Assembly (NCBI GenBank): GCA_016840065.1
Contig: JAEOTB010000066.1
Span: 1-44,135, forward strand
Direction of reading: 5' to 3'
Source: Candidatus Hermodarchaeota archaeon
GTDB taxonomy: Archaea > Asgardarchaeota > Hermodarchaeia > Hermodarchaeales > Hermodarchaeaceae
Length of the DNA stretch: 44,135 nt
Positions 556 to 28,563 of this stretch are shown here, piece by piece. The translations under genes and the position numbers were made by a program. The first letter of the stretch is position 1; each line of letters begins with the position of its first letter. Under the pieces are notes generated by a model. That model made no database searches. It saw only the letters and a list, made by a program, of their open reading frames with translations, and was not told the DNA's origin.

Positions 556-584
556 AATTCTTCATCTTCACTATCTTCGCCTAG

Positions 585-1469: not shown

Positions 1470-1493
1470 TGATTTTCACCTTTAGGTTTTTCA

Positions 1494-2354: not shown

Positions 2355-2369
2355 TTTCTGTTTCCCTCA

Positions 2370-3242: not shown

Positions 3243-3263
3243 CGGTTGATCATCTCATTGGTT

Positions 3264-4130: not shown

Positions 4131-4142
4131 AGTTAATCACCT

Positions 4143-4823: not shown

Positions 4824-4849
4824 TCTTTCATCACCATTGATTCTAGCTT

Positions 4850-6027: not shown

Positions 6028-6741
6028 TTAGCCCTCTCTCCACACAATCAGACCCCAATACTCCTTGAGTGCCCTGGACACAGAGCCTGATGTTTTAAGA
6101 CTCGAACGTGCCCAGAGCTCCACATTGTCATCCAAGCCAAGAGCAACTAGCTTCTGGCAGGCAAAGAGCGGCGACACATCCACGCTCACCAACCGATTCT
6201 TGTTGAAATGGAGTTCTCGTAAATCAGTGCAATAGCTGAGGGGAGCAAGATCCACCTCCACCAGCTGGTTCTTGGAAAAACTGAGCCATTGTAGGTTGGG
6301 GCATCGACTGAGGGGAGTAAGATCTACTTCGTTCAGATGGTTCTTGGAAAGGCTGAGTGATTTCAGTTTTTGGCATTGGCTGAGGGGGGAGAGATCCACC
6401 TGAATCAACCAATTGTTGTTAATAAGAAGTGTTTGTAGTTTTTGGCATTGGCTGAGGGGGGAGAGATTCACCACTGCGAACTGGTTGTCCGATAGCCAGA
6501 GCTTTTCTAGATTGTAGCAATGGCCTAGAGGAGTAAGGTCTACCTTCATCAACCGGTTCCTGGAAAGGCTAAGGGTTTGTAGTTTCTGGCATTGACTGAG
6601 GGGAGACAGGTCAATCGACGCGATGATTTCTCGACTGAGGTTGATGCTGGTTTCGTCGGTGCTAAACGTTTCTCGTATACGTTCTCCTCTGTGGGTTAGG
6701 TATTCGATTTCAACTGTTGATTCAGAACTTCTCTCTGGCAC
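6028..6741 (-). CDS. Leucine-rich repeat protein (22-aa repeats)
   Basis: About 7 repeats of VDLSPLSQCQKLQTLSLSRNRL. Paralogue of 13546..14169. Confidence 0.92.
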   Translation of the reverse strand: MPERSSESTVEIEYLTHRGERIRETFSTDETSINLSREIIASIDLSPLSQCQKLQTLSLSRNRLMKVDLTPLGHCYNLEKLWLSDNQFAVVNLSPLSQCQKLQTLLINNNWLIQVDLSPLSQCQKLKSLSLSKNHLNEVDLTPLSRCPNLQWLSFSKNQLVEVDLAPLSYCTDLRELHFNKNRLVSVDVSPLFACQKLVALGLDDNVELWARSSLKTSGSVSRALKEYWGLIVWREG

Positions 6742-8182: not shown

Positions 8183-11100
8183 GTGATGAACCAGAGAGCC
8201 GCTATCGCTTTCAGTATATTCTTGCTTACTAATTTTCTATCATCCGCTGTTACATACAATACGCCTTTGACTTGTCAGTTTAGCAGCAGTTTTCTGGATT
8301 CAGATGGCAGGTCTCCAGTTCAGAGAGGGGTTTCACTAGTCACCACTAAGGGGGAGCCATCAGATAGGCTGAAAACCCTGATTCACCCTAACCTTGATGA
8401 CACTCCCACCCTACCCAGCGACTTGAGCTTCAATATCACGTCCAATGAGGGCTATTTTGATGGACTCAACTTGTTCGATCCTCGCGGAGAGATTGAGTAT
8501 AAATCGGTCATCATGAATCTCGAGGGGGATATCATTGTAGAGAGGCCTTATTGGAGAATGGTGGAATTCATCAATTCGACACACGTTCTAGGTTTTTGCT
8601 CTGAACATGAAGCAGCACTTTGGAATGTTTATGAAGGAACTGAAACACGATTAGGTATCCAAGGCCACCACGAATTAGAATACAACTGGATAAATAACAC
8701 CATTCTAACCTTCAAGGCATACGTTGTCACAATCAATGAAACGCAATACAAGTATGACATGATTGAAGAATACAACCTGGAAGGGGAGCTAGTCTGGTCT
8801 CTGGATACACAGGATATCATCTCTCCCAATCAGTGGTGCCCTTTCAAGGATGGCTTCACCGAAGCTGATATCACTCATTCGAATTCAATATTCTTTGATT
8901 CAGAAGAAGACACCTTCCTATTCAACGTTAGAAACGTAAATACCTTCTACAAAGTAGACCACAAAACTGGAGAGATCCTTTGGGGTTTAGGAGAGTACGG
9001 CAACTATTCTTTATACGATTCCAATGGTAATCCCAAGGATAACCTCTTCTACCATGCTCACGCTGTCGAGCAGGTTGACGACAACACCTTCATTCTCTTT
9101 GATAACGACTATCATAACCAGACTAACCCCACCTATCCACGTTCACGCATCCTCGAAATAACCATCAACGAAACCACCATGACCGCAAACGAGTCTTGGT
9201 CATGGATTGCCCCCCAGGATTATTACTGCACCTACTTTGGCGATGCAGACCGGCTACCAAACGGAAACAGGCTAGCAGTCTTTGGGGTCCACTACGGTCC
9301 TAGGATTGTTGAGGTTTCAGAGGAAGGTGAAATCGTTTGGCAGCAGGAATTCTCCAGTGGGAATACAATCTACCGAGTGGAAAGGTTTCGCTTTGAACCA
9401 ATTCTTAGCAGCCCTCCCGATATCCACGTAAATTCCTCAGAGAACGTGAATGTTACCTGGCAGGCATTCTACAATTTCCGCCCCAAGAGAGACATAAACG
9501 GAACCTACGCCCTGTACCTAAACAACTCTGAAATCGCAACAGGCATTACCACCTACGACAAGCTCTGGCGCCCCACTAACTTAACCTTCAGTGTGGGTGT
9601 ACTAGAAGATGGACTCTACAACGTCACCCTTGCAGTAACCGATGGAGGGGGACACCAAGCCACAGATAGCCTTAACATGACCATTGGACCATTCTACATC
9701 GAGCGAGAAGGCCCAACAACTATTGAGAAAGGACAGGAGGGCGAGATGATACGATGGAGCGGGTTCACCAACAACCCTCTGTTCTACAACATCACTCTGA
9801 ACAGTACTCTGCACACATCTAATATGTGGGATGGTGAAATCATAACACTTGATCTCGACTTGCTAGAAGAAGGTAGCACTCGAGTGATATTCCGTCTCTA
9901 CAATGGAACCGAACTCGTACACACAGACGATTTCTGGGTCGACGTGGCACCTCCAATCCTACCCGTCATTACGCCCTCCCAACCAAATGATATAACGATA
10001 ACCTGGAGTGGCACACAACCCCTTTCATGGACCCTAACTGACAATTTCCCATCATCATGGAGTCTATTTCTAGAAGGAACAGAGGTGACCAGTAGTTCGT
10101 GGACTTCTCAAACATATCTCCTCAACTGGACCGTACCCCTTCTAGACGAAGGCGAATACAACATCACCGTTGTCGCTTCTGATCTTGCTGGACAAAGGAC
10201 AATCAACACCACCTGGTTAACCGTAGAGTTCCCCAGCCCGCCCATAATCCTTTTTATGTCAGGGGAAACACAATTTCTGTGGGGACAGGAGAACGCTATC
10301 CTGACATATGAGATTCATGGTGGGGTTCAATGGGCTTTGTGGAAGAACGAGGTTCAGATACGAGGGGCAGGGCTATCAGGACACCTGCTAGAGATTGAGA
10401 TAGAGAATTGGCAACCAGAAGGGTGGAGCCTGGGTATCCATAATATCACTTTGGAGGTAACAGATAGTTCCGACGCCTCGTCAACTCTCACCCTCTGGAT
10501 TCAGATAATACTATCTCCAGGTGATCCTTACGCCGATGCCTGTATTGCTTCACATTCTGATTGGTATCTTCATGGAGATAACGCTGTGGGAGCACCTGAC
10601 AATGCCTTCGCAGAGATCTTCCTGGATTACGGAAACGGCTACGTAACCCTTGATATGGGTGCGGGAGAAGAGATACTGGATGGTATTGGTGCTGACTTCT
10701 GGGTGGTGGCCCAGGGCGGCGAATACAACGTCCGGGTCAGCAACAGCCTCACCACCGCCTTCATCACTATTGGCACAGGTCAAGGTTCCCAAGAATACAA
10801 CCTAACCGGGACAGGATTAATCGCCGCACGTTATGTAAGAATCACCTACCTAGACGGTGCAGATGTTGAAGTTGATGCCATCGTTGCCCATAACTACAAT
10901 CAAGCAGGAGGCGACACGGAAGCCCCCCTCATTACAGGGCTGGAGGACTTCTGGGTTCTAGAAACGCAGACAACAACCTCTTTCATCTGGGAAACCTATG
11001 ATGCAAACCCCTGGAATTACAGCTTGTACGTCAATGGTAGCCTATACGAAACTGGTCCATGGAATGGCTCAGACATAACCCTCACTCTCGAAATCACTAT

Positions 11101-11581
11101 GACAGGGGCTTGGCAGAAACAAAATGTGACACTAGCTCTCTTCGATGTTTGTGGCCAGCAGAATCAGGATTCAGTCTTGGTTGACATTCTCCCCATCGAT
11201 AACGACAATCCACAGATTTTCGGTCCAGATGACTTCTGGATCCTTGAGACGCAACCAACCTTCTCTTGGATCTGGACGGGCCAGGATTTAACACCAAGCA
11301 ACTACTCCATCTTCGTTGACGGGATCTTCTATGAGGCTGGTTTGTGGGACGGGTCAGATATTCCCTTCAGTTACAATGTGAGCCGGATAGGACTCCTGAC
11401 AATCACTCTCACTCTCTGTGATTTCTTCGGTCACCAGACAGTTGACACGGTTCTGGTTGAAGTCCGATCGCTTCTCAGCGGACCAGCTGACCCAATCCTA
11501 AAACTAGCCTTGACTGTATTCGTTCTGGGTACCTTTCCTGTTCTATCAACGCTCCTCTACCTGACTCGCCGCCGCAAGTGA
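8183..11581 (+). CDS. Membrane-anchored aryl-sulfate sulfotransferase (ASST)-family surface protein with Ig-like repeats and a jelly-roll-like domain
   Basis: Signal peptide; GHHEL, THSNSI, YHAHAV, ILFDN and GDADRLPNGN ASST propeller motifs; repeated Ig-like units (W...D..P..Y.....G....G.W.G; G.YN.TL...D..G); C-terminal TM followed by RRRK. Confidence 0.8.
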   Translation: MMNQRAAIAFSIFLLTNFLSSAVTYNTPLTCQFSSSFLDSDGRSPVQRGVSLVTTKGEPSDRLKTLIHPNLDDTPTLPSDLSFNITSNEGYFDGLNLFDPRGEIEYKSVIMNLEGDIIVERPYWRMVEFINSTHVLGFCSEHEAALWNVYEGTETRLGIQGHHELEYNWINNTILTFKAYVVTINETQYKYDMIEEYNLEGELVWSLDTQDIISPNQWCPFKDGFTEADITHSNSIFFDSEEDTFLFNVRNVNTFYKVDHKTGEILWGLGEYGNYSLYDSNGNPKDNLFYHAHAVEQVDDNTFILFDNDYHNQTNPTYPRSRILEITINETTMTANESWSWIAPQDYYCTYFGDADRLPNGNRLAVFGVHYGPRIVEVSEEGEIVWQQEFSSGNTIYRVERFRFEPILSSPPDIHVNSSENVNVTWQAFYNFRPKRDINGTYALYLNNSEIATGITTYDKLWRPTNLTFSVGVLEDGLYNVTLAVTDGGGHQATDSLNMTIGPFYIEREGPTTIEKGQEGEMIRWSGFTNNPLFYNITLNSTLHTSNMWDGEIITLDLDLLEEGSTRVIFRLYNGTELVHTDDFWVDVAPPILPVITPSQPNDITITWSGTQPLSWTLTDNFPSSWSLFLEGTEVTSSSWTSQTYLLNWTVPLLDEGEYNITVVASDLAGQRTINTTWLTVEFPSPPIILFMSGETQFLWGQENAILTYEIHGGVQWALWKNEVQIRGAGLSGHLLEIEIENWQPEGWSLGIHNITLEVTDSSDASSTLTLWIQIILSPGDPYADACIASHSDWYLHGDNAVGAPDNAFAEIFLDYGNGYVTLDMGAGEEILDGIGADFWVVAQGGEYNVRVSNSLTTAFITIGTGQGSQEYNLTGTGLIAARYVRITYLDGADVEVDAIVAHNYNQAGGDTEAPLITGLEDFWVLETQTTTSFIWETYDANPWNYSLYVNGSLYETGPWNGSDITLTLEITMTGAWQKQNVTLALFDVCGQQNQDSVLVDILPIDNDNPQIFGPDDFWILETQPTFSWIWTGQDLTPSNYSIFVDGIFYEAGLWDGSDIPFSYNVSRIGLLTITLTLCDFFGHQTVDTVLVEVRSLLSGPADPILKLALTVFVLGTFPVLSTLLYLTRRRK

Positions 11582-16771: not shown

Positions 16772-17185
16772 TTAGGGGGGTTCATGTGGAGGTGACCAGC
16801 CTGTGACTCCGACAATCTGTTTGCCCCGACGATAGGTAACAGTGACATGTGGCCAATGGAATTGCTCATCACTCAGATTCTGGTGGAGACGAATTTCAAG
16901 GGTCGCTGTCCCCTTGAGCCTAATGGTGCCTCCCATCCCTGGAGGGGACAAACCCGGGGGAATCACCTGAACCTGGAGCTCAGCGGCGGGGCCTATCATA
17001 CCAAATTCGCAGCCCTTACAAGAGACCTGGATTGGCTGACTGGTTAACGGGTCTGTGGGTGTCATACTGACTTGGGTCCATTCGATGTCGCCTCCAGCGG
17101 CAACAAAGATCTTAATGACTCCTGCCAGCTTTGGTTCCTTTCCTGGAGGGAAGGGTGAACCACCTGGGTATCCTTCTGGCTTCAT
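16772..17185 (-). CDS. Hypothetical Pro/Gly-rich beta-strand protein
   Basis: 137-aa ATG-initiated ORF collinear with its neighbours; no family recognised. Confidence 0.55.
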   Translation of the reverse strand: MKPEGYPGGSPFPPGKEPKLAGVIKIFVAAGGDIEWTQVSMTPTDPLTSQPIQVSCKGCEFGMIGPAAELQVQVIPPGLSPPGMGGTIRLKGTATLEIRLHQNLSDEQFHWPHVTVTYRRGKQIVGVTGWSPPHEPP

Positions 17186-17224
17186 AGTAACCCATTAGGA
17201 GTTACTTCATTTAGTTGTTTAGTT

Positions 17225-17911
17225 TTAAGAGGTGTAAGTAGGAGCGGAGCTTTGCCATTCCCAGATAGGCTTAATTCCGTTCGCTGCGGAGAGGACCATT
17301 GTTATCAATGCTTTGATTCTGTTTGAGGTGAGGTCCTTGCGGTGAATTTCAACCGCGATTCCCACATCATTGTCAACATCAAGAGTACATTTCACACCTC
17401 TTGTTCTGTGACTTCTATGGAGTAACGATTTGAGGATAAGACAGCGTTGATGAGGAGTCCAATCGTCTCGCTTGAAGGGATTCAAGATTTCATTATCGAG
17501 TTTGGGGTCAAGGGGAAAAGCAACAATTGTAAGCCAGTCACCGGTCACGGAGATGCAGAAGTTCAAACGTATAGATGCCCAAGAGCTAGTACTCTGATGA
17601 GTGGTCAAGAGTTGTTCTCCTCGGGTTTCGTAAGCGATACCGCATTCACTCAGGAGACTCTGAATACGCTCAATCGTGAACCGGCTCTTTGGCTGGGGTA
17701 TGAAAGTGAGATCAGGAGAATGATTCTGGACCGTTTCTGTGCTGGGTCTCATTCTTCCTTCAACAAACCCTGTGCTTCCTCTCCCTCCACCAACCCTTTT
17801 TTCCCTAAAACGTTCTAGATATCTTCGATGAGACTCCTCTTGACGTCTCCCGAATTCCTCCCAGCTCTCGTTCTCACGACGCTTGTACCTATATTCCTCA
17901 TTATCTGACAG
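17225..17911 (-). CDS. YbjN/T3SS-chaperone-like fold protein with charged N-terminal extension (probable CTG start at 17911; first ATG at 17752)
   Basis: IERIQSLLSECGIAYE...GDWLTIVA...LLHRS...VKCTLDVDNDVGIAVEI matches the YbjN pattern. The frame stays open for 53 codons upstream of the ATG. Confidence 0.6.
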   Translation of the reverse strand: MSDNEEYRYKRRENESWEEFGRRQEESHRRYLERFREKRVGGGRGSTGFVEGRMRPSTETVQNHSPDLTFIPQPKSRFTIERIQSLLSECGIAYETRGEQLLTTHQSTSSWASIRLNFCISVTGDWLTIVAFPLDPKLDNEILNPFKRDDWTPHQRCLILKSLLHRSHRTRGVKCTLDVDNDVGIAVEIHRKDLTSNRIKALITMVLSAANGIKPIWEWQSSAPTYTS

Positions 17912-18032
17912 GATTCAAGAACCCCCTATGGAAACACCCTAAACAGGTTAACCTAGAATACTAATTTAAGCTTGTCATACAAGACCACAAAAGACATAGT
18001 CAACTCCTACCAATAAGGATTGGACGTGTTGA

Positions 18033-18923
18033 GTGTTGCGTGAAGAGTGGATAAAGTATCTTGAGCAACTGGAAGAGAACAGGGGATGGCCTATGATAGG
18101 CTACATCTATCCTGTCACCGACGAAGTGACAACCACACATCTTCAACAACAAGATCAAAACAAGCAAACGATGGAACAGTCACTCATCAGTGAATTGCTA
18201 CAGGAAGCCTGGCGGGTCGCCGTAGATTTCGGCTGCGGCACAGGTGCCAATTTCTTTCTCTTCGATGGTCACAGACAACGTAAGAGCCTACTCGTAGGTC
18301 TTGATCCAGATTGCGAGCGACTGGAATGGGCCAGGCAGACAGCAGACTATCAACTGATGTTTGTCCAGAGCTACACTCTCTGTGGAGGAGTAGAAATCCT
18401 AGAAAACATACCCGATAAACTCAAGGCGGATGTTGTCCTTTGCTCTCAGGTTCTTGGCCATGTCTCAGAGGAACAAACCCAGCGAATCATCAAAGGATTT
18501 CACAGAATCCTCACCAAGAAGGGTCGCTGTGGAATCGCAATTCCTATCATCGGGGAAGCATTCAAGGAAAATCCTCAAGCCGAGGATTGGTCCGGTAAGG
18601 AAGATTTCACACACCTAGTCGATATGGCAAAATCTCCTGGTGACCGTGGTTTCCGACGCCAAATAACTCTCGAAGAATTCAATAGAGCGGCTGACAAACC
18701 GGAAACAGGACTATTACCTGTCCGCTCATTCCTCGTCCCAGAGTTCCCCAATCCCTTAGAAATTAAACTTCCCTGCGAGCTGAGTGCCCCACCACCGACA
18801 ATTGCTCATTTAATTAAACCTCTCTTCGATGTTGAAAAGAGCACAATATACTCCATCCACAAGGATCCAGGCAGCCCAATATTTCCTATAGGTGATTTGT
18901 TCATCCAACTAGGGAAGAAATGA
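18033..18923 (+). CDS. Class I SAM-dependent methyltransferase
   Basis: VDFGCGTG motif I, VGLDPD, DVVLCSQVLGHV, RILTKKG. Confidence 0.88.
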   Translation: MLREEWIKYLEQLEENRGWPMIGYIYPVTDEVTTTHLQQQDQNKQTMEQSLISELLQEAWRVAVDFGCGTGANFFLFDGHRQRKSLLVGLDPDCERLEWARQTADYQLMFVQSYTLCGGVEILENIPDKLKADVVLCSQVLGHVSEEQTQRIIKGFHRILTKKGRCGIAIPIIGEAFKENPQAEDWSGKEDFTHLVDMAKSPGDRGFRRQITLEEFNRAADKPETGLLPVRSFLVPEFPNPLEIKLPCELSAPPPTIAHLIKPLFDVEKSTIYSIHKDPGSPIFPIGDLFIQLGKK

Positions 18924-19858
18924 ACTATTGGAGGATAATACAGTTGACAACGATACTTGGTGCAGTTTTACAGAATGGTAGCCCAATTGACATAACAACA
19001 ATCACAATATGGACTATAGAGCTTATCATCTTTCCAATCATCACGTTTTTCCTTGGTTGGTTCATTACAAAAATTCGTAAACTACTCAAGTTCAGAACCT
19101 TCCGCAAGGTCTTCGGACAAATCGCTGAACACCCTGAAAACATCCTCTTCTCTCTACCGCTCTGGAAAGTGAAAGCGGCGTCTAGGGACGAAACACGTTT
19201 TGAGAAGATTGGTTTTGACGAAAAGATAGAAGCCTTCTATGGACCCGACGATACAGTGGCCTTCGATGACTTAGATGCCACAGCTCAGGTCGCCTCCATC
19301 CTAGCTGAATTCTTTCCCACGCCCGTGAACTTCACTCTAGACAACGACAGGAGCCTAGAAATCACAGGAAAAACCGTAATCATGATAGGCTCTCCACTGG
19401 TCAACCTCCGAGCCCGGAGTGTCTTGGATTTAGTGGAGCAACCACACCTCGACTTTGTAGATCAGGAGGAAACCGCTGACCACCCAGCACGAACTGGAAT
19501 ACTCGACAAGAGAAGAGGGTTACTATATGATTCTTCAGGTGACTGGCAGTATTCGATGATTCTCCGAGTACCCAACTACCGCACGTCCGGAGCCTATTTC
19601 TTTCTGGTCTTCGGAGCCCACGCCGCAGGAACGCTCGCAGCTGGGATTTACTTGAAGAATAATTGGGAAGAGTTCAAGGATGCTGACCCAGCGGCTGGTG
19701 TGGTCATCGAGATGCCCAGAAGTGATATCGCGCACTATCGTGTAGTGGTCAAATACGGTTTTCCTGCAAGTGAAAAAGGTGTTGAATCCCCTGACGGGCA
19801 ACCCCTTAGCATGCCAAGTTTTCCTCCAAAGGAAAACCGGAATGCAATCACTAGATAG
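18920..19858 (+). CDS. Membrane-anchored hypothetical protein, translationally coupled to the methyltransferase
   Basis: ATGA overlap; N-terminal TM; soluble alpha/beta domain with VIMIGSPLVN and FLVFGAHAAGTLAA motifs. Confidence 0.75.
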   Translation: MNYWRIIQLTTILGAVLQNGSPIDITTITIWTIELIIFPIITFFLGWFITKIRKLLKFRTFRKVFGQIAEHPENILFSLPLWKVKAASRDETRFEKIGFDEKIEAFYGPDDTVAFDDLDATAQVASILAEFFPTPVNFTLDNDRSLEITGKTVIMIGSPLVNLRARSVLDLVEQPHLDFVDQEETADHPARTGILDKRRGLLYDSSGDWQYSMILRVPNYRTSGAYFFLVFGAHAAGTLAAGIYLKNNWEEFKDADPAAGVVIEMPRSDIAHYRVVVKYGFPASEKGVESPDGQPLSMPSFPPKENRNAITR

Positions 19859-19877
19859 TCAGCTCCTTTTCGCCCTT

Positions 19878-20066
19878 CTAAGATTCAGGGGGTTTGAATT
19901 TCATCGCACCACCGTGTGTACAGTATTCAAATCCTTCAGGGATGACTGATCCACACCTGTGATAATACGATATGGTACTCGGGGGTGGTCGAGTGAGTTC
20001 CATCTCTGGTCTGGCAGGGGTTCTTTCTGGTATAGAAGGTGTGAAAGCCTTTACCAAATATCTCAC
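19878..20066 (-). pseudogene. Short Pro-rich ORF ending in a degenerate zinc ribbon (possible remnant)
   Basis: GTG at 20066 overlaps the RING gene stop. YYHRCGSVIPEGFEYCTHGG resembles CxxCG-x7-CxxCG with 2 Cys lost. Confidence 0.4.
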
Positions 20067-21148
20067 TAAACTACATCGGATTTCCTTAATCTCCGTTGGC
20101 AGAAAGGACATACTCCCTTGACCTTTAGCCACTCTAAAAGATGGGACCTGTGAGCTAATTTCTGGCAGTGAGGGCAATTAAGATACATTTCTCCAATTTC
20201 TACGGTAGTATGACAGACAATGCACTGGCCAGGTTTCACCCCACAACCCGGGCACTTCCCTATGCGTCTTCCTTGAATGTCAAGACCGCAATCCTGGCAC
20301 TGATACACACCACGTTTACTACGAGTAACTGGTTCACTTCTCGGGCTGGAATCGCGTCGTGAACGTATCAACAAAAGTATACAAACTAGCAATATGAACA
20401 CGATTGTAACAGCATAGCCGGCTAAGAAAAGCGGATTCGAAGGAAAGGGAGTGCCTGTTACTGTTATAGTGCATGAGGCTGATCGAGAATTATCATACTC
20501 GTCAGTTACTCTTACAGTCACGCTGTGTCGGCCAACAGAGAGGGTACGTCTATTTTGGAGTCGTCCATAGTAGTTAATCGAGAAATAATAATTATTGTTG
20601 GTGATTTCCCAGTCGTCGATATCTGAAAGGTCCTCCGCTACCAGTAACTGGTTTACACTCTCACCGTATTGTATGGTTTCACTTTCAGGTGCTGTAACGA
20701 AGACTGGGGCTGTAGTATCTTGTACAGTTATTAAGAATCGTGCAGAGCAGTAATCGTTGCTTGGATTAAATGCCCTAACCTCAACGTCGTAGACACCCAC
20801 AAGTACGAGCGATATGTTTCTCACAATAGCTGTAGATGCGTCAATGGGGGTAATGCTGAACAGGCCGGAACTTATCCACCAATCATCCACTCCGTCAGGA
20901 TCAGATGCTCTCAGTTCCATACTGAAGCCAACCCCAAGCTCTACAAACTGGTCAGTGGGTTGTATAAACCATACTGGACGAAATGGGCTTCCCATCGCCA
21001 AATCAGCAGAGTTTGTACAGAAATCAATGTTTGGTTTAGTGCCTTGACCCGAGATGACGAAGTATTCAGATGTGGGATAAAGTGAAGGAAAGATAGGAAA
21101 TAGGAAACATACGATAAGTAGAAGGAATGGAATCAAACCACTACGCAA
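20066..21148 (-). CDS. Single-pass membrane protein: signal peptide, two cadherin-like Ig domains, TM, double zinc ribbon and RING finger (putative E3 ligase)
   Basis: PVWFIQPTDQ...ASDPDG and PVFVTAPE...AEDLSDI Ig units; TM LAGYAVTIVFILLVCILLLI; CQDC...CPGC; CIVC-x12-CPHC-x4-H-x2-H-LLEWLKVKGV-CPFC. Confidence 0.85.
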   Translation of the reverse strand: MRSGLIPFLLLIVCFLFPIFPSLYPTSEYFVISGQGTKPNIDFCTNSADLAMGSPFRPVWFIQPTDQFVELGVGFSMELRASDPDGVDDWWISSGLFSITPIDASTAIVRNISLVLVGVYDVEVRAFNPSNDYCSARFLITVQDTTAPVFVTAPESETIQYGESVNQLLVAEDLSDIDDWEITNNNYYFSINYYGRLQNRRTLSVGRHSVTVRVTDEYDNSRSASCTITVTGTPFPSNPLFLAGYAVTIVFILLVCILLLIRSRRDSSPRSEPVTRSKRGVYQCQDCGLDIQGRRIGKCPGCGVKPGQCIVCHTTVEIGEMYLNCPHCQKLAHRSHLLEWLKVKGVCPFCQRRLRKSDVV

Positions 21149-21330
21149 CTCAAGAACCCCATAGAAACCAGAGACACCTATTCCTTCAAGCTGTAAAAAT
21201 AAAGCTTTTTCGTTTTCAAGGAAATAAACAACTCAAAATCTTGACACATTCTGTCTAGAGAGCAGACCCAATCCAATTAACTTAAAAACAATGGCAGGAA
21301 TGTATAGATAATTCAATTGGAGGAATTTCT

Positions 21331-22179
21331 ATGAAATGTGCTAAACATACTGCCGCTGATGCAGTGGGAGTCTGCGTTTCCTGTGGAATTGGTGTCTGCA
21401 GGAGCTGTGAAATCAAAGTAGTTGGCAGAACTCACTGTAAAACATGCGTTGAAGCTGGAAGAGCCTATGACCCACAGGCTGCTCCAGTTAGAACTTACCC
21501 AACTTATGGACCAACCATTAGCCCGCCCGTAGAGGCAAAACCAACAGGAAATCCAAGCAGAGCATTCTTCATCATGGGATTCATTGGAATGATTATACTC
21601 ATGGCCAGTGGAATGATAAATTGGATCTTTGACACCACTGGATTCTTCTTCTACTGGATGTTCATGATGCCCTTTCCTGTCTATACGATTTCACTTGCCA
21701 TCTTCTGCGCTTCTATAGTCGTGACCTCCATAGCACTCTACGGTTACAGAAGGAATTATGGCTCGTTAATGGGGATAGCCACCTTCATTATCTCACTCAT
21801 CCTGCCCTGGTTCCTTCTAATCGCAAAGCTTCTCCTCTACACTGGACTTGTCTTCACACCACATACGAGCTACTATCCCCCCTATTACACCTACTATTAT
21901 CCTGGACCACTCTATATCCACTACTTTGCACTGTACATCACTGGTGCTGTATTAATCGGTGTTCTGTTCATACTATGGGGTTGTGCCCTCTTTGTAGTCC
22001 GAAAACATACAGGTAAAGCTGGATTACCTATTGCCGCAGGTATTCTATTCATAATTGCTGGTAGCTTCTGGTGCACGATAATGCTCTATCAGATTGGCTC
22101 CATTCTACTGATTCCTGCAGGAATTTTGTGGATGATATCTCTAGCCACTTCTAGGATGCCTGGCGACTTTACCTACTGA
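21331..22179 (+). CDS. B-box-type zinc finger plus ~6-TM membrane protein (paralogue 1)
   Basis: CxxH-x8-CxxC-x4-CxxC-x9-CxxC at the N-terminus, a Pro-rich linker, hydrophobic helices; GGAGG SD. Confidence 0.85.
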   Translation: MKCAKHTAADAVGVCVSCGIGVCRSCEIKVVGRTHCKTCVEAGRAYDPQAAPVRTYPTYGPTISPPVEAKPTGNPSRAFFIMGFIGMIILMASGMINWIFDTTGFFFYWMFMMPFPVYTISLAIFCASIVVTSIALYGYRRNYGSLMGIATFIISLILPWFLLIAKLLLYTGLVFTPHTSYYPPYYTYYYPGPLYIHYFALYITGAVLIGVLFILWGCALFVVRKHTGKAGLPIAAGILFIIAGSFWCTIMLYQIGSILLIPAGILWMISLATSRMPGDFTY

Positions 22180-22225
22180 GGAAAAGAATAAGGGTAAGAC
22201 AATACCAACGAGTTGAGGTGATGGC

Positions 22226-23128
22226 TTGAAGTGTAAAGAGCACAAGGTAAAGGACGCAATTGGTGTATGCATTAGTTGCGGTTCGGGTCTGTGTAAAAAA
22301 TGCCTAATTTCAGTAAAGGGTATCAGCTACTGTAAACCCTGCCTCGAAGGAGGGAGAATACGCCCTGGACCCACTCAGGGCACAAGTCATCCTCCTCCAA
22401 CTCGCACGCCACAACCGATAAGAGCTCCACGCCCAGTAAGGATTCCTCAATCCACAAGGAGGCCGATTCGCCCCCTCTTCTACCTAGGCGCCGTAGGAGT
22501 AATCCTTCTCATTTTTTCAATGATTCTCTACGTCTCCCTTCAATACGTTGCATTCCTTGAGGAAACATTCCTACCCTCAATAATTACCGCTTCGATGCTG
22601 GTTCTGATAAGCAGTGTTATTACAGGAATCGGATTCTTTGGCTACTGGTGGAACTACGGCCTTCGAACTAGCTTAGCCGCTTTCATCTGTACCCTAATAT
22701 TCAGCTGGTGGCTGCTACTGGGTGAAACCCTACTTGGAACTTATCTGGGCTATTTCCCGCTAATCATACGGGATATTGGGATCGCTGCCTTTGGTGTAAT
22801 GCTCGAGGTTTGGGCTACAGCGATAGGAGAGGTTAGCCTCTTTGATGTCAACGAGTGGCTGGCTCGGATTTGTAAGTTCTTTCTGAGTCTTACAGCCCTA
22901 CTATTCTTCTTCACATGTGTACTGGGAATAGCAAGCGATGTCCTAATCGGGCCTGGACCAATAGAATTCGCTATAATGTTTAGAGCATTCATGATTATCC
23001 TTCTGAGCGTAGGTGTAGTTTTCCTAATCCCAGGAGGCATACTTGGCATAATAATACTAGCGACGACAAAATACGGATTAGTTAGAATACAATCCGAAAC
23101 CCCCGCTACTACCAGCACTGAAGGATAA
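22226..23128 (+). CDS. B-box-type zinc finger plus multi-TM membrane protein (paralogue 2)
   Basis: CKEH...CISC...CKKC...CKPC; Pro/Arg linker; TM bundle with GIGFFGYWWNYG; GAGGTG SD before TTG. Confidence 0.85.
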   Translation: MKCKEHKVKDAIGVCISCGSGLCKKCLISVKGISYCKPCLEGGRIRPGPTQGTSHPPPTRTPQPIRAPRPVRIPQSTRRPIRPLFYLGAVGVILLIFSMILYVSLQYVAFLEETFLPSIITASMLVLISSVITGIGFFGYWWNYGLRTSLAAFICTLIFSWWLLLGETLLGTYLGYFPLIIRDIGIAAFGVMLEVWATAIGEVSLFDVNEWLARICKFFLSLTALLFFFTCVLGIASDVLIGPGPIEFAIMFRAFMIILLSVGVVFLIPGGILGIIILATTKYGLVRIQSETPATTSTEG

Positions 23129-23196
23129 GGGGTTAAATCAAAGACTTAAAAGCATAAATAGTTTAGATATGGCAGAATGGTTCCGAGGGAAACATC

Positions 23197-23979
23197 TTGA
23201 AATGTAACAAACATACAAAACGGGCTGCCGTTGCTGTGTGCGTCTCTTGCGGAGTAGGAGTCTGCAGGGACTGTGAAATCAGGGTCAGCGGCAGAAGCCA
23301 CTGTAAGCAATGCGTCGAAGAAGGAAAAGCAACTCCAACAGAACAAGTAGTACAACCCAGTGCGCCTAGGGCTCCCATGGTTACTCCAGCTGGGCAACCA
23401 AGACGCGGCTACTTCGTCTTAGGTGCAATCGGACTTGTCATTTTCATCATTGCGGCCACTTTGTCCTGGACGTTTTCTTATCTCCTTTTATTCCTCTTCC
23501 TTTGGTATAGTCCCTTCTTCTACATCATCAGTCTAGTACCGAATATACTCCTCACTGTTGGAGGTATAATGAGCGCTATCGGATTCTATGGTCAACGCCG
23601 AAACTTCGGCTCAAACATGGGCTTGGCAACATTCATTATCTCCCTAGTCTTCATCTGGTTCCAGCTCATACCTGGAATAATACGCGCCGCCCTCTACGGA
23701 GGTTACTACTATTATTATCCTTGGTATATGATATCTTATACCCTGTTCTATGTGGGTTACGCTCTCATGGGTGTAATGGTTATCCTTTGGGGGTGCTCCA
23801 TGCTAGTGAACCGTATTCAAATGGGGAATCAGGGTCTGGCGATAGCGGCTGGAGTCCTTTTCATCATCACAGGCGGGTTCATCTGCTCAATAGTTCTTGA
23901 GTGGATTGGCTTGATACTAGTCATTCCGTCTGGAATTCTGGGAATCATCCTCTTCGCTACCGTCAAGGTCCCAACATGA
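23197..23979 (+). CDS. B-box-type zinc finger plus ~6-TM membrane protein (paralogue 3)
   Basis: CNKH...CVSC...CRDC...CKQC; AIGFYGQRRNFGSNMGLATFIISL matches paralogue 1. Confidence 0.85.
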   Translation: MKCNKHTKRAAVAVCVSCGVGVCRDCEIRVSGRSHCKQCVEEGKATPTEQVVQPSAPRAPMVTPAGQPRRGYFVLGAIGLVIFIIAATLSWTFSYLLLFLFLWYSPFFYIISLVPNILLTVGGIMSAIGFYGQRRNFGSNMGLATFIISLVFIWFQLIPGIIRAALYGGYYYYYPWYMISYTLFYVGYALMGVMVILWGCSMLVNRIQMGNQGLAIAAGVLFIITGGFICSIVLEWIGLILVIPSGILGIILFATVKVPT

Positions 23980-24005
23980 GAAAAAAAGGCATTGAAAGTG
24001 GTGAG

Positions 24006-24278
24006 TTAGGGTAACTCTTTCTTCTGCAGGTTTTTCTCGCAGCGGGGACAGGTACCCTTGACCTTGAGCCACTCCAGAAGATCGACTCGATGCGCCACCC
24101 CATGGCAATGAGGGCATTTGGTCGAGTCATCCGCGGACCTAACAGCTCCCTTACAAACCATACATCGTACATGGATAGCTCCGCAGTTCCTGCACCATTC
24201 CTGTTCACCGGGGAGGACAGCCCCACACCTTGTGCAATAGGCCACAGCCCCCTTAGCAGATTCGCCCGGTTGGTTCAA
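24006..24278 (-). CDS. Small soluble zinc-ribbon plus RING-finger protein
   Basis: CTRC...CRNC, then CMVC-x12-CPHC-x4-H-x2-D-LLEWLKVKGT-CPRC. TTG start with GGAGTG SD. Confidence 0.8.
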   Translation of the reverse strand: MNQPGESAKGAVAYCTRCGAVLPGEQEWCRNCGAIHVRCMVCKGAVRSADDSTKCPHCHGVAHRVDLLEWLKVKGTCPRCEKNLQKKELP

Positions 24279-24490
24279 TTAATACACTCCAATTTGTGTA
24301 ATAAGCGAAACAACATACCTTCACCTAAAAGGCTATCGATAGAAACCCTCAATCCTGACCTGGATAGATTTACGGTGCTAATGCAGAAGAATCCTCCAGA
24401 ACATCGATATCACTGATACATTACAAGATAGACAAACATTAATCTTAAGGGAGTGGGTGCTGTTCGTAGCAGATGGAGGTTTTTGCTAGT

Positions 24491-24958
24491 ATGTCTCCGC
24501 ACAAAGAAATGGTAAAGGATGAAATCGACCAGTTCCTCACGTGTGCCCGTACAGGTCGCCTAGGAGTTATTCTCAATGACGAACCCTACATTGTTCCTGT
24601 GGGGTTTGCCTGGGTGAATGGGCAAATAGCTTTTCACGCCTGTAGCAAGGGCTTGAAGATGGATGCGTTAGAGTCCAATCCGAAGGTCTGCTTTGAGGTT
24701 GATGAATCACTCTCTGATGGCTCAATGTACAAGTCGGTACTCGTCTTCGGCAGAGCAGAAATACTAAAAGACAACGCCGAGAAAATCCCATACCTCCAAG
24801 CACTAATCAACAAATATAGGGTCCATGAGGAATTCGATGCCTACATCAACAAAGCCACCCGAAAACCGGAAGCAGAGATGAAAGCCGTCCGAATAGTCCT
24901 CATAACACCTGAAAAAATCACCAGCAGACAATTCATCAAATTCGGAAAATGGGAGTGA
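24491..24958 (+). CDS. Pyridoxamine 5'-phosphate oxidase / NimA-family flavin-binding protein
   Basis: GRLG...PYIVPVGF...FH...GLKMDALESNPKVCFEVD...YKSVLVFG. GGAGG SD before ATG at 24491. Confidence 0.9.
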   Translation: MSPHKEMVKDEIDQFLTCARTGRLGVILNDEPYIVPVGFAWVNGQIAFHACSKGLKMDALESNPKVCFEVDESLSDGSMYKSVLVFGRAEILKDNAEKIPYLQALINKYRVHEEFDAYINKATRKPEAEMKAVRIVLITPEKITSRQFIKFGKWE

Positions 24959-24964
24959 CAAAGA

Positions 24965-25693
24965 ATTACAAAAACTGAGCTAATCTATCTAGAGGACAGC
25001 TACCAGAAAGAAGCCGAAGTCACAGTCATAGACACCAACGCAGCCCGAAACAGCGTCATACTCGACGGTACGATATTCTATCCTGAAGGAGGCGGCCAAC
25101 CGAGTGATAAGGGCAGGATTGACTCAGCGTTGGGCTCTTCAGCGGTGATACATGTGGCAAAGCAGGGCAACCACATCTACCACTACCTAGAGGGGCCACT
25201 CCCATCAAAGGACCAAGAAGTGACCCTAAAGCTAGACTGGACCAGACGCTACGCTCACATGCGCATGCATACAGCCCAACACCTCCTCAGCCGAATCATC
25301 TTCGACAAGTACGGCGCAATGACCGCCGGCAACCAGATCTACGCGGAAGTCTCCCACATCGACTTTGCACCAGCAACCTTCCAATCCGATGCACTTCCCG
25401 CCATAGAAGCCAAGGTCAACCACTACATCAAAGAAGACCACCCAGTCACCATCACAGTTGTTGAACGAGCAGAACTGGAGATGGAAATGGATCTCGACCG
25501 CTCCGACCTATCAAAGCTCCCCTCCTCCATCAAGCGCCTCCGCATGGTCCGTATTGGTAACTTCGATGCTTATCCGTGCGCTGGAACCCATGTACACTCC
25601 ACAGGCGAATTACTCGGGTTAAAAATCACCAAGCGCAAAAGCAAGGGGAAAGAGAAGATACGAATCACCTACGAACTGACTCCTCAAAAATAA
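24965..25693 (+). CDS. alaXM: Alanyl-tRNA editing protein AlaX-M (no canonical start codon; probable ATT start)
   Basis: Manual translation gives ITKTELIYLEDSYQKE...ILDGTIFYPEGGGQPSDKG upstream of the track start, then HMRMHTAQH (HxxxH) and CAGTH (CxxxH) zinc ligands. Confidence 0.9.
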   Translation: MTKTELIYLEDSYQKEAEVTVIDTNAARNSVILDGTIFYPEGGGQPSDKGRIDSALGSSAVIHVAKQGNHIYHYLEGPLPSKDQEVTLKLDWTRRYAHMRMHTAQHLLSRIIFDKYGAMTAGNQIYAEVSHIDFAPATFQSDALPAIEAKVNHYIKEDHPVTITVVERAELEMEMDLDRSDLSKLPSSIKRLRMVRIGNFDAYPCAGTHVHSTGELLGLKITKRKSKGKEKIRITYELTPQK

Positions 25694-25846
25694 CCGAGTC
25701 ATCGTGTCAGATTCCAATGAGCATCCTCAAGATAACACAGAGTAAGGGGAAGGATGGGATACGGTTAACCTATCGGGTAGTCCCCAAAGATTAAATGAGT
25801 AAAACGTAGAGTATAGTAATATCCCCTATTAGGGGAGGTTCAAAAC

Positions 25847-26161
25847 TTGAGTCCAAGACCAAGAGTAAGAAGGCGAAGAATCCGGCGACGGGTCAGGCGT
25901 AGGACTCGAAGACGTGTCCGCAGACACTTCAGACGAGTTCGAAGAGGCGCCTACTGGCTTTTTGCACCAGTCGCTGGCGCACCTTGGCGGCTACACCGCA
26001 GACATGTGATCATCATCGAGCGGGAAGCCGGTAAACCCATTGATGAGCTGAGCGAAGAAGAACTAGAAGAACTCCTAGAACAGCTAGGTATAAGCAAAGA
26101 AGATCTCGAAGACGAAGACGAAGAAGCTCTTGACGAAGAGGATGAAGAAGAAGACGAATAG
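25847..26161 (+). CDS. Small bipolar protein with Arg-rich N-terminus and Asp/Glu-rich C-terminus
   Basis: GGGGAGGT SD before TTG; the first ~33 aa are mostly Arg; central IEREAGKPIDELSEEEL; acidic tail. Confidence 0.8.
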   Translation: MSPRPRVRRRRIRRRVRRRTRRRVRRHFRRVRRGAYWLFAPVAGAPWRLHRRHVIIIEREAGKPIDELSEEELEELLEQLGISKEDLEDEDEEALDEEDEEEDE

Positions 26162-26280
26162 ACTCGGAAACCAATTAACACAGAAAGAATACTCCTCTCT
26201 CAATCGATGTGTAGGTTCTCGATTTAGTAGTGGCTTTTATATCTACTAAGTCGAAACCCACATCAAACCCACAAAGTAGG

Positions 26281-27024
26281 ATGGTTGTAGTTATGCCCCA
26301 ATGGTCCGAGTTGACCCAAGCTAGCTTTGAAAGAAAAGCTAGGCAAACCAAGGTCGCAGTAATGGTCACCTGTGCAGTCGAAACCCATGGCGACCATTTA
26401 CCCTTAGGTACTGACATGATTCTACCTACTTTTCTAGCCGAAAAAATCGCTCAAAAGACCAAAGCCTTGGTTCTTCCACCAATTCCCTTTGGGGAGAGCT
26501 GGTCATTTGATGTCTTCAAGGGTACAGTCTCCCTTCGACCTGAAACTCTCTTGATGGTCTATCGGGATGTGATGAAGGCGGTGTTTCGTCAAGGCTTCAA
26601 GTTCATTATAGCCCTCAACGGTCACGGAGGTAATTCACGACTTCTCCATCAGGCAGCAGAATACTCTACCGAAGACCACGACGGTACAGTTGTTATCGTA
26701 AACTGGTGGAGTGACTTGGCAGCAAGTGTGAGAGCCGAAATCTGTGAAACACCTGATGGCCATGCTGGCGAGGACGAAACCTCTGAAGTGCTCGCGGTGC
26801 GTCCTGACCTAGTTGATATGAAGGCAGCAAAGAGTGCACGCATCCGTACTACCTTTCGGATTGTGTCGGCTTCACGCAGAGAAGAGTTACTGCCCCGGGG
26901 GATCTATGGTGAACCCCAAAACGCAACAGCAGAAAAGGGGAGAGCCATTATGGAAAGAGCAGAGAAAGAACTGATAGAACTTGTACAACAACTTGAGAAA
27001 GGAAAACTTCCAATCTCCGAATGA
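26281..27024 (+). CDS. Creatininase / creatinine amidohydrolase family protein
   Basis: ETHGDHLPLGTD, NGHGGN and HAGEDETS metal-binding motifs. Start uncertain (26230-26293). Confidence 0.92.
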   Translation: MVVVMPQWSELTQASFERKARQTKVAVMVTCAVETHGDHLPLGTDMILPTFLAEKIAQKTKALVLPPIPFGESWSFDVFKGTVSLRPETLLMVYRDVMKAVFRQGFKFIIALNGHGGNSRLLHQAAEYSTEDHDGTVVIVNWWSDLAASVRAEICETPDGHAGEDETSEVLAVRPDLVDMKAAKSARIRTTFRIVSASRREELLPRGIYGEPQNATAEKGRAIMERAEKELIELVQQLEKGKLPISE

Positions 27025-27057
27025 TATTAATTGACTTTTCCATTCCCTTGAGAGCGG

Positions 27058-28563
27058 GTGAATGAAAGTATGCGGCGTAATTCTGTGGTTCTGATTGGTT
27101 GTGGCCGCATGGGTCGGGCAATAACCAAGATGCTTCTTCAAGAGGAGAAGCAGGAGAATCTGAGCATTGATATTTTCCTCTATGATCCATTCAAAGAAGC
27201 TGAAGAAACCTGTATGTTGGAGTGCCAGGAACTTTTCAGCAGGAAACTAGCTCATCCCCTTCGTGAGGTTCATACAGCATCTGACTGGGAAAAAATAGAT
27301 AGGCTAATGGTAAAGGCTCGGGGCGAGCAGGAACTCACACGAGAACTCTCAAAACTAATGAAAGCTCCTCTAGCTAGCGTCCAACCACGACTACTTCTTA
27401 ACGCCGCCACATATTTTGCTCATAGAATCTACATACCTCTAGCAATCGAACTGGGCTGTGACTACATCGACCTCGGACAGGGAATTCCTGCCCCAGAGGA
27501 ACGCCAGACATACGAAGCCGCCATCAGGAAATCCAAAACCCCTTCAAGGCTTGTACACGAATCAGGACTCGCACCAGGACTCGCAAACGTTCTAGCGGCT
27601 AACCTATACAATCTAGCTCTAGCACAGTCGTCGAACGGTCGGGTGCATTCAGTTCAGATGCGCTGTGGAGGCCTCCCACAAAACACCGAGAAATCTGGGG
27701 ATTTGCATTATGGTCCAGTTTTCTCTCCAGACGGGCTCTTATACGAATATGAAGCCGAGGCTCGTAGTATCAGGGATGGTGCGGTGGTTATAGGCACAAC
27801 CTTTGACAACCCGGACCATTGGGAGAATTCTACCCCCCAACACACACCCTATGGCTGTGCTCCATTCTTGGTTGAGACACCAACGATTAGAATGCTACTG
27901 GAGGACCGTATCCAATCCAAATTCCTTGAATACCAAGATGATCAAATGTACTTAACGGGGTTACAGGCTCGCCCAACAGCGGACGGCACCTCTCAGATGA
28001 CATCAGATGAACGCTACCGAGTAACCATAGACAATCTAGAATATAAGACATTTCGATTCAAACCTCATTTTGAGACTTGGTCTAGAATGCAAGAAGAAGG
28101 TACACTTGAGGTTCTCCTTGATCGTTGGCGACTAAAGATGGACGAACCCCACGTCTCAGGCTACCCCGATTTAGTGATGTTACGTGTCTGGGCTCAAACC
28201 AGTACAGACTCAGAACACCTCTCGACGGAGTTGCTTGTTCTCCACGACGATGTCGATGTAGACGAGTCTAACGCTTTCTCTGCGATGGCCCATTTGACCT
28301 GCTGGCCCACTGTTCTCCTAGCCGTCGCTCTCCTCCAATACCCGCCGGGAACTTCATCCTCCAAGCGTCCCAAACTCTTTCAGGCTCCCGAAGCGATGGT
28401 AGGGTCCCAGCGGAGTGTGGAGAGCCTGCTCGAAGAAGGTGGAATAACCCTCCCTTATGATATCCTAGATGGAAAAACGATGCTTGAAATGCTAGACGAT
28501 GACCACCGAATACCCCTTCGAGATGTTAGGTATCCGCCCCCATGGCGAACCTCGGATAACTAA
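27058..28563 (+). CDS. Saccharopine dehydrogenase / lysine 6-dehydrogenase-like oxidoreductase with insertions
   Basis: LIGCGRMG Rossmann motif, AIELGCDYIDLG, SGLAPGLAN, CGGLPQ, FSPDGLLYEY, YKTFRF. Confidence 0.85.
   Translation: MNESMRRNSVVLIGCGRMGRAITKMLLQEEKQENLSIDIFLYDPFKEAEETCMLECQELFSRKLAHPLREVHTASDWEKIDRLMVKARGEQELTRELSKLMKAPLASVQPRLLLNAATYFAHRIYIPLAIELGCDYIDLGQGIPAPEERQTYEAAIRKSKTPSRLVHESGLAPGLANVLAANLYNLALAQSSNGRVHSVQMRCGGLPQNTEKSGDLHYGPVFSPDGLLYEYEAEARSIRDGAVVIGTTFDNPDHWENSTPQHTPYGCAPFLVETPTIRMLLEDRIQSKFLEYQDDQMYLTGLQARPTADGTSQMTSDERYRVTIDNLEYKTFRFKPHFETWSRMQEEGTLEVLLDRWRLKMDEPHVSGYPDLVMLRVWAQTSTDSEHLSTELLVLHDDVDVDESNAFSAMAHLTCWPTVLLAVALLQYPPGTSSSKRPKLFQAPEAMVGSQRSVESLLEEGGITLPYDILDGKTMLEMLDDDHRIPLRDVRYPPPWRTSDN

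Follow-up and report, generated by a model that had tools for sequence, protein, structure and literature searches.

RING genes on both sides of a tandem array of B-box-like membrane protein genes in a Candidatus Hermodarchaeota archaeon: a likely juxtaposition of two expanded gene families

Whether RING and B-box fingers encoded by neighbouring genes act together in one membrane-associated ubiquitin ligase is the question raised by a locus on a 44,135-nucleotide contig of a Candidatus Hermodarchaeota archaeon (assembly GCA_016840065.1, contig JAEOTB010000066.1), the whole of which is called here the window. Both domains are binuclear treble-clef fingers. At this locus two RING genes, A and C, bracket three tandem paralogues, B1, B2 and B3, each encoding a B-box-like finger, a proline-rich linker and six transmembrane (TM) helices; this layout, reported in a preliminary description of the sequence, is confirmed by the open reading frames (ORFs), by hydropathy and by a structure model of B1. 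The same description suggested that RING and B-box units may be parts of a membrane E3 ligase complex. Taken as a whole, that interpretation is partly supported by our analysis, while a TRIM-like assembly is not supported. The locus is somewhat more probably a place where members of two gene families, each expanded in this Asgard lineage, lie next to each other, and an obligatory partnership between the RING and the B proteins seems to be absent.

All five genes were confirmed as real from the ORF list of the window. Gene A (20066..21148, minus strand) is divergent from B1 (21331..22179, plus strand), with 182 bp between them. B1, B2 (22226..23128, plus strand) and B3 (23197..23979, plus strand) are co-directional, separated by spacers of 46 and 68 bp, and each has its own ribosome-binding site. 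Gene C (24006..24278, minus strand) is convergent with B3 at a distance of 26 bp, so that the two are not co-transcribed. The public gene call of A starts at a later ATG and gives a protein of 309 instead of 360 residues; with this start, the signal-peptide-like N-terminus would be lost. The locus had been said to begin at 19878, a coordinate derived from a 99-residue ORF without family matches (19878..20177, minus strand), which overlaps the 3′ end of A in another frame; as the overlapped sequence is the conserved RING coding region of A, this ORF is probably spurious, and the range of gene A begins at 20066. The window is contig C48 of the source genome (G000), a 2.59-Mb assembly of 131 contigs, derived from marine sediment, that is 84% complete and 5% contaminated. 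The locus is carried solely by marine-sediment DNA sequencing runs, all of one study, and no RNA run is found among the holders listed. PADLOC gave 0 matches, and PHROGs a single weak match, to B3, of unknown function.

The two families separate when relatives of this genome are considered (in the same family, these are labelled 'Promethearchaeota archaeon' and 'Candidatus Thorarchaeota archaeon' at NCBI). In the sister genus, no RING gene lies within 8 kb at any of 12 B loci; each of these has a single B gene among metabolic genes, in one of two conserved contexts, the first with POR subunits and a hydrolase, the second with ferredoxin, cupin, NAD kinase, DUF1844 and alcohol dehydrogenase genes. 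Likewise, the five other B loci of the source genome have no RING gene on the same contig. Furthermore, in another Asgard family, genome G068, which is 97% complete, encodes two full-length B homologues in tandem (E 2.7e-36 and 1e-26), and neither this genome nor four more of that family gives a match to the RING-family, E2 or ubiquitin queries, all of which match the source genome. Finally, a RING/B-box fusion was not found among the ORFs of the source genome. The B family appears not to depend on RING or ubiquitin genes. The idea of a membrane E3 complex built from RING and B-box units is not supported, given the occurrence of B without RING in the sister genus and in G068 and the lack of fusions among the proteins examined; it also fits poorly with the prokaryotic membrane-protein type of the B finger and with the absence of A from an otherwise collinear contig, both described below.

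Co-location of RING and B genes does recur outside the window, on contig C89 of the same assembly and on contigs C158 and C287 of a second genome (G003), but all these cases belong to one genus. Contig C89 is collinear with positions 17001-27076 of the window at 57-84% amino acid identity, housekeeping-type genes included; its gene set comprises a methyltransferase, a 312-residue membrane protein, B1, B2, B3, a small RING protein, PNPOx, an AlaX-like protein, an Arg-rich/acidic protein and a creatininase. The flank proteins are 82-84% identical between the two contigs and C is 80% identical, while the B proteins reach only 57-73%, which means that the B genes diverge faster than their surroundings. 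The slot of gene A is the sole break in collinearity; C89 has there a 73-residue B-box-like ORF and a 190-residue CxxC membrane protein instead. This contig may be a paralogous segment left by an old segmental duplication or may belong to a co-binned relative, and for this reason the paralogue counts of the source genome may be inflated. In G003, a RING gene on contig C158, with a product that shares 63% identity with C, converges on a B3-like gene, and a B2-like fragment comes next; beyond the RING gene, the outer flank is a membrane methyltransferase and not PNPOx, and PNPOx and AlaX lie on another contig of that genome, without RING or B genes. Among the relatives examined, RING and B genes have thus stayed neighbours in this genus alone, where C-B3-B2 forms the conserved block.

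We then consider the two RING proteins themselves. Gene A encodes a RING at residues 309-350 (20099..20224, minus strand) with the ligand order C4-H2-C2, preceded by a C4 zinc ribbon at residues 284-302 (20243..20299, minus strand) with sub-threshold Pfam zinc-ribbon matches. The product of C is a soluble protein of 90 residues, composed of a zinc ribbon (residues 15-32) and a RING (residues 39-80; 24039-24164). The identical ligand spacing attributed to the pair holds for the two RINGs, both of which follow C-x2-C-x12-C-x2-C-x4-H-x2-[H/D]-x10-C-x2-C, i.e., eight Cys/His-type ligands with cross-brace spacing in a variant order; however, ligand 6 is His in A and Asp in C, and the zinc-ribbon spacers differ in length (11 and 10 residues). 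Similarly, the LLEWLKVKG motif is indeed present in both A and C, but it is not private to them, as it occurs in 4 ORFs genome-wide and, in the looser form EW[LV]K[VI]KG, in 9, the ubiquitin-operon RING included. Across 23 paralogues (alignment A2), the RING ligands show little or no variation. Around them, A has C-I-V-C, LLEW, CPFC and a Gln after the last Cys, and C has C-M-V-C, LLEW, CPRC and a Glu. The residues expected to contact an E2 are kept in both, namely a hydrophobic residue after Cys1, the Trp of the central helix and the Pro after Cys7. In the Caldiarchaeum RING protein srfp, the reaction was lost with the I30Q substitution and significantly impaired with W58A (PMC5654768); the residues equivalent to I30 and W58 are conserved in A and C.

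A profile built from the 23 paralogues matches solved RING-H2 ligases in the PDB, with RNF24 (E 1.4e-8), Arkadia (2e-8), ZNRF3 (1.5e-5), RNF13 (4.4e-4) and AT5G66160 (6.3e-4) accompanied by EL5, RNF165, RNF126, RNF38, RLIM, Hrd1 and gp78; WDR59, WDR24 and WDR19 are matched as well. In the profile alignment, the C-x-H of RING-H2 domains is replaced by a CPxC knuckle at ligands 3 and 4. The AlphaFold2 model of C has a predicted local distance difference test (pLDDT) score of 80, rising above 90 over most of the RING, and superposes on the solved RINGs 3lrq, Rad18 (2y43) and TRAF6 (3hcs) with a root mean square deviation of 1.0-1.2 Å over 53-55 columns; when RNF165 (5ulk) and RNF24 (2ep4) are included, the range is 1.0-2.0 Å over 46-55 columns. 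For the whole C module, the top Foldseek matches are the C-terminal zinc ribbon plus RING of the intraflagellar transport complex IFT-A (8bbg_A, E 2.7e-5, 79 columns) and GATOR2 subunits. In structure, the module is closest to the C-terminal modules of IFT-A (WDR19, IFT122) and GATOR2/SEA (WDR24, WDR59, MIOS) subunits; these belong to the protocoatomer-type proteins, and their RINGs have a scaffold role.

Asgard RING E3 ligases are known mainly as one small protein of the ubiquitin operon. As noted before, no ubiquitin, E1 or E2 gene is in the window; in the source genome these genes are on contig C69, in the order E1, E2 (with an HPN...C motif), ubiquitin ending in GG, an 81-residue RING protein and a UEV/E2-like protein, and the contig further holds an AAA ATPase, read by eye as Vps4. 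Since ubiquitin, E1 and E2 are all encoded in this genome, a lack of these genes does not speak against the proposed membrane ligase complex. The operon RING is related to A (phmmer E 3e-11) and to C (2.4e-8), has a nearly identical helix motif (HLAEWVKVKGVCPICR) and scores above the zf-RING_2 threshold (27.9 vs 27.3 bits). Therefore, the assignment of A and C to the E3-type RINGs stands, based on homology to the operon RING, profile matches at E 1e-8 and the fold match to solved RINGs, and the two are credibly ubiquitin-system proteins, although, judged from their sequences, their intrinsic activity may be low or partner-dependent. By phmmer bit scores, each of them is closer to RINGs of other contigs than to the other, so that they are not mutual nearest paralogues; an origin of the pair by local duplication was dropped on this ground.

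Compared with srfp, the RING protein of archaeal ubiquitin operons (Caldiarchaeum subterraneum; Asgard clusters of ubiquitin and endosomal sorting complex required for transport (ESCRT) genes), A and C have a homologous RING that shares its ligand pattern and the helix motif EW[LV]K[VI]KG with that protein. They differ from it in lying outside any ubiquitin/E1/E2 operon and in having an extra N-terminal C4 zinc ribbon; moreover, A combines a membrane anchor with an ectodomain, the linchpin R69 of srfp is replaced by Gln in A and Glu in C, and ligand 6 of C is Asp. Operon RINGs act as E3 in cascades reconstituted in vitro with the components of Caldiarchaeum (PMC5654768) and of a Helarchaeial cluster (bioRxiv 10.1101/2023.07.25.550441), and in the latter work an Asgard E1/E2/RING cascade ubiquitinates UEV-Vps23 in vitro.

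The RING family extends well beyond the operon. A family hidden Markov model finds 32 RING ORFs in the source genome and a six-frame search gives 35 matches; a hydropathy scan places TM segments in most of the 32 paralogues, some of which have large N-terminal regions. The family is found in 51 of 61 related genomes with 1-35 copies; genomes of this genus have 10-21 and those of the sister genus 3-7, and the source genome and its genus have the top copy counts among these relatives. The paralogues are located on contigs C5, C101, C30, C56, C106, C62 and others, several of them in tandem arrays, and many have 1-5 predicted TM helices or N-terminal regions of up to 929 residues.

Gene A encodes one such membrane-bound RING. 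Its 360-residue product consists of an N-terminal signal-peptide-like stretch (hydrophobic at residues 5-23), a beta-rich ectodomain of ~210 residues, a single TM helix at about residues 237-261, the zinc ribbon and the RING. An Arg/Lys-rich stretch follows the TM helix, which points to a topology with the RING in the cytoplasm. The ectodomain has weak Ig-like Pfam matches at residues 147-231 (He_PIG 0.0029, HYR 0.0053; also Big_9 and PKD), and no homologue of it was found in a search of 5.8e9 proteins, which returned A alone. The best reading of this organization is a putative receptor-like membrane E3 ligase. The same layout of ectodomain, single TM helix and cytoplasmic RING-H2-like domain is seen in ZNRF3/RNF43 and in the PA-TM-RING proteins (RNF13, GRAIL, plant RMR), and a signal-peptide-like N-terminus is likewise present in ZNRF3 and PA-TM-RING proteins. 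On the other hand, the ectodomain of A is neither of the PA nor of the ZNRF3 type but an unrelated orphan, a zinc ribbon is added ahead of the RING, ligands 3-4 are CPxC instead of C-x-H, and the host is an archaeon. A MARCH-type ligase was also considered and rejected, as the RING does not take the form of a RING-CH domain at the N-terminus of a multi-TM chain.

The B proteins have 36-48% pairwise identity. B1 (282 residues) consists of the finger at residues 1-41 (21331-21453), the Pro-rich linker and the six-TM domain at residues 78-273; B2 (300 residues) and B3 (260 residues) have the same make-up and are 36% and 47.5% identical to B1, respectively. Each protein starts with M-x-C-x2-H-x8-C-x2-C-x4-C-x2-C-x9-C-x2-C, and the eight ligands (C3, H6, C15, C18, C23, C26, C36, C39) are invariant in 13 sequences. 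This set fits the start of a B-box, C-x2-H-x7-8-C-x2-C-x4-5-C-x2-C, whereas the last ligand pair is C-x2-C after a 9-residue spacer in place of the His pair of TRIM B-boxes. Pfam zf-B_box (PF00643) scores 11.9, 16.2 and 15.3 bits for B1, B2 and B3 (E 0.26, 0.012 and 0.023), below the gathering threshold of 24.1, and DUF2180 matches B2 with E 7.4e-4 (20.1 vs a threshold of 22.2 bits). Against the PDB, the B-box profile gives weak matches to TRIM28 B-box2 (E 0.0065), MID1 B-box1 (0.18) and the MID1 tandem B-box (0.27). The AlphaFold2 model of B1, made with 24 relatives, has a pLDDT of 89; in it the finger (93-95) folds as a hairpin plus a short helix, the linker is disordered and a six-helix bundle is formed by helices 78-111, 116-143, 146-171, 195-222, 231-248 and 250-273, and a beta-hairpin rich in Tyr and Pro is placed between helices 3 and 4. 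If the finger is cytoplasmic, the basic loops YRRNYG and VRKHTGK would both be inside.

The finger has bacterial counterparts. It is 40-57% identical to the N-termini of membrane proteins of Chloroflexota, mostly Dehalococcoidia, and two loci in metagenome-assembled genomes of Chloroflexia and Dehalococcoidia (L092:3001-4161 and L095:3001-4170) encode tandem paralogues with the same finger on a different, shorter TM domain, which contains a GNEWAWQ motif. According to PMC4506424, which cites Burroughs et al. 2011, prokaryotic B-boxes play a part in how membrane proteins fold, in their stability and in their proteolysis. Like B, such proteins join a cytoplasmic binuclear finger at the N-terminus to TM helices through a low-complexity linker, and they often occur as tandem paralogues. 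The six-TM domain of B, however, is a family separate from that of other prokaryotic B-box membrane proteins and matches no Pfam model; Pfam searches on ten divergent relatives likewise returned no TM family. Foldseek against the PDB yielded nothing at E ≤0.001 for this domain, and the ESM Atlas gave TM scores of at most 0.31 by query in the structure search and at most 0.77 in the feature search, generic helical bundles at most. A related-locus search with B3 alone found nothing. A zinc-ribbon plus Yip1-domain membrane protein (L008:5792-6550, plus strand; Pfam Yip1 E 7e-14) adjoins the E1 gene on contig C69, and alignment of the six-TM profile with it by hhalign showed no relation.

While a word-indexed search of 5.8e9 proteins returned only 13 relatives of B, an exhaustive profile search with the six-TM domain yielded 297 representative clusters at E ≤1e-3, 171 of them at ≤1e-10, located mainly in the Asgard family of the source genome. 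Among the best 150 of the 297 representatives, 36 have a B-box and 94 the TM domain only (some being fragments); the rest have Pro/Tyr-rich N-terminal tails (10), an N-terminal zinc ribbon (3) or C-terminal CxxC pairs (7), and none of the 150 is fused to a RING. From these counts, the six-TM domain is the core of the family and the finger an exchangeable accessory. In three representatives (P0043, P0051 and P0062, one of them labelled 'Euryarchaeota archaeon') a Pro/Tyr/Gln-rich tail stands in place of the finger. The source genome itself has 13 B-family ORFs in seven places, including TM-only forms and a 55-residue finger-only protein. The B proteins are a lineage-restricted, fast-diverging six-TM family with a prokaryote-type B-box finger.

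If the locus is a juxtaposition of two families, its products would act separately. A would be a type-I membrane protein with the Ig-like ectodomain outward and the RING on the cytoplasmic face, where the RING could recruit the E2~ubiquitin of this genome to the membrane and tag membrane-proximal targets, and this A-dependent tagging would probably feed the ubiquitin-ESCRT pathway encoded in the same genome. C would be a small soluble zinc-ribbon-RING protein that may be a weak or partner-dependent ligase, as suggested by the Asp at ligand 6 and the acidic residue at the linchpin position. Most likely, the finger of the B proteins, in the cytoplasm, would have a ubiquitin-independent role at the membrane, in protein-protein contacts or in oligomerisation.

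Several observations weigh against this account. For the E3 role of the RINGs, the basic 'linchpin' after the last Cys is absent from both A (Gln) and C (Glu), while among the 32 paralogues of the genome this residue is R in 14, K in 8, Q in 4, E in 2, H in 2, G in 1 and N in 1; catalytic E3 function of A and C is consequently not assured. In addition, Pfam zf-RING_2 (PF13639) scores only 20.4 bits for A (E 6.5e-4) and 19.7 for C, below the gathering threshold of 27.3. As for the independence of the two families, the C-B3-B2 block is held together at three places in the genus, namely in the window, on C89 and on G003:C158, and the far flank of C is a different one in G003; a B-family fragment on G003:C287 lies 1.1 kb from a RING of a different subtype; and when a 2.65-kb segment is placed at random in the genome, a RING gene is within 300 bp in 3% of the trials but on both sides in 1e-4 of them. 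The conserved block, the C287 neighbourhood and the rarity of two-sided flanking leave room for a functional link between C and the B proteins that is specific to this genus, which we regard as possible but not likely. The link suggested by conservation of the block cannot be distinguished from inheritance of genes that were inserted jointly. A stricter form of such a link, in which C and the B-box-six-TM proteins constitute a dedicated membrane ubiquitination module of the genus and the B-box is a docking site for the RING E3 or a substrate handle, is rather improbable; were it true, this module would be a prokaryotic, split forerunner of the RING/B-box cooperation of TRIMs, feeding membrane cargo into the ubiquitin-ESCRT pathway.

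It is equally doubtful that the RINGs of A and C are structural zinc scaffolds for protein assembly, comparable to the GATOR2/SEA and IFT-A modules. This would agree with the best whole-module Foldseek matches of C (IFT-A, GATOR2), with WDR59, WDR24 and WDR19 among the profile matches, and with the Asp ligand 6 and Glu linchpin of C and the Gln linchpin of A. However, the RING core is nearest in sequence to catalytic RING-H2 ligases, it retains the Trp of the E2 contact, the hydrophobic position behind Cys1 and the proline of CPxC, the operon paralogue adjoins E2 and ubiquitin, and the Caldiarchaeum and Helarchaeial operon RINGs are E3 enzymes in the reconstituted cascades (PMC5654768; bioRxiv 10.1101/2023.07.25.550441).

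Less probable still is the split, TRIM-like membrane E3, in which C, and perhaps A, would dock on the B-box fingers of B1-B3, with the six-TM domains as anchors or adaptors. It could draw on the persistence of the C-B3-B2 block despite the altered outer flank in G003, on the further RING-B neighbourhood of C287, on the two-sided flanking (chance 1e-4 under uniform placement) and on the contact between RING and B-box in TRIMs named in the title of PMC5533445. Indeed, RING-type and B-box-type fingers are both present in one locus, as they are in TRIM/RBCC proteins; here, however, they are on separate polypeptides, with no coiled coil in the models of B1 and C and no fusion in the relatives examined, neither RING/B-box among the ORFs of the genome nor RING/six-TM among the best 150 of the 297 representatives, and the analogy breaks down on the feature that defines TRIMs, a single chain that includes a coiled coil. 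The lack of co-location at 12 sister-genus loci and five other loci of the source genome, the occurrence of the B family where RING, E2 and ubiquitin queries give no match (G068), the convergence of C and B3, hence not co-transcribed, and the swapping of the B-box with zinc ribbons or Pro/Tyr-rich tails across the family all argue against such a complex. A complex prediction with full-length B3 and C gave a score of 0.00; it yields no verdict and counts neither way.

An enzyme-substrate relation, in which C and/or A ubiquitinate the cytoplasmic loops of the B proteins for turnover via ubiquitin-ESCRT without a stable complex, would suit the genus-level C-B linkage, the ubiquitin-ESCRT cluster of the genome, the ubiquitination of UEV-Vps23 by an Asgard cascade in vitro (bioRxiv 10.1101/2023.07.25.550441) and the fast evolution of B, as for a regulated surface protein, but it is very unlikely, as it meets the same phyletic arguments as the split E3 and no substrate mark is seen in the B sequences.

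Under the favoured reading, that of two juxtaposed families, the prokaryotic habit of placing B-box fingers on membrane proteins gives a better explanation of the apparent 'proto-TRIM', and the B-box case is a caution that co-occurrence of domains is easily over-read as a eukaryotic signature. With regard to the RINGs, the ~32 paralogues, many with TM segments, stand against one operon protein, and A is a receptor-like example of them. If these RINGs are active, E3 diversification and membrane-localised ubiquitination predate eukaryotes and, together with the archaeal ubiquitin-ESCRT system, ubiquitin-dependent sorting of membrane cargo becomes testable in vitro with defined components.

A few other genes of the window deserve mention. 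At 1-5743 (minus strand), seven co-directional tandem paralogues of ~290 residues each are 21-61% identical, with one weak ATC_hydrolase match. Also upstream of the locus, a 237-residue leucine-rich-repeat protein is encoded at 6028-6741 (minus strand), and a 1132-residue protein with arylsulfotransferase-like and Ig-like domains at 8183-11581 (plus strand). At 25130-25693 (plus strand) lies the AlaX-like editing-domain gene, giving 187 residues from a TTG; its counterparts on C89 and in relatives have 240-249 residues, so that the true start may be upstream or the N-terminal part may be lost. Finally, the small protein encoded at 25847-26161 (plus strand) is extremely rich in Arg in its N-terminal half and acidic, with many Glu and Asp residues, in its C-terminal half, and its counterpart on contig C89 is 92% identical over 50 residues.

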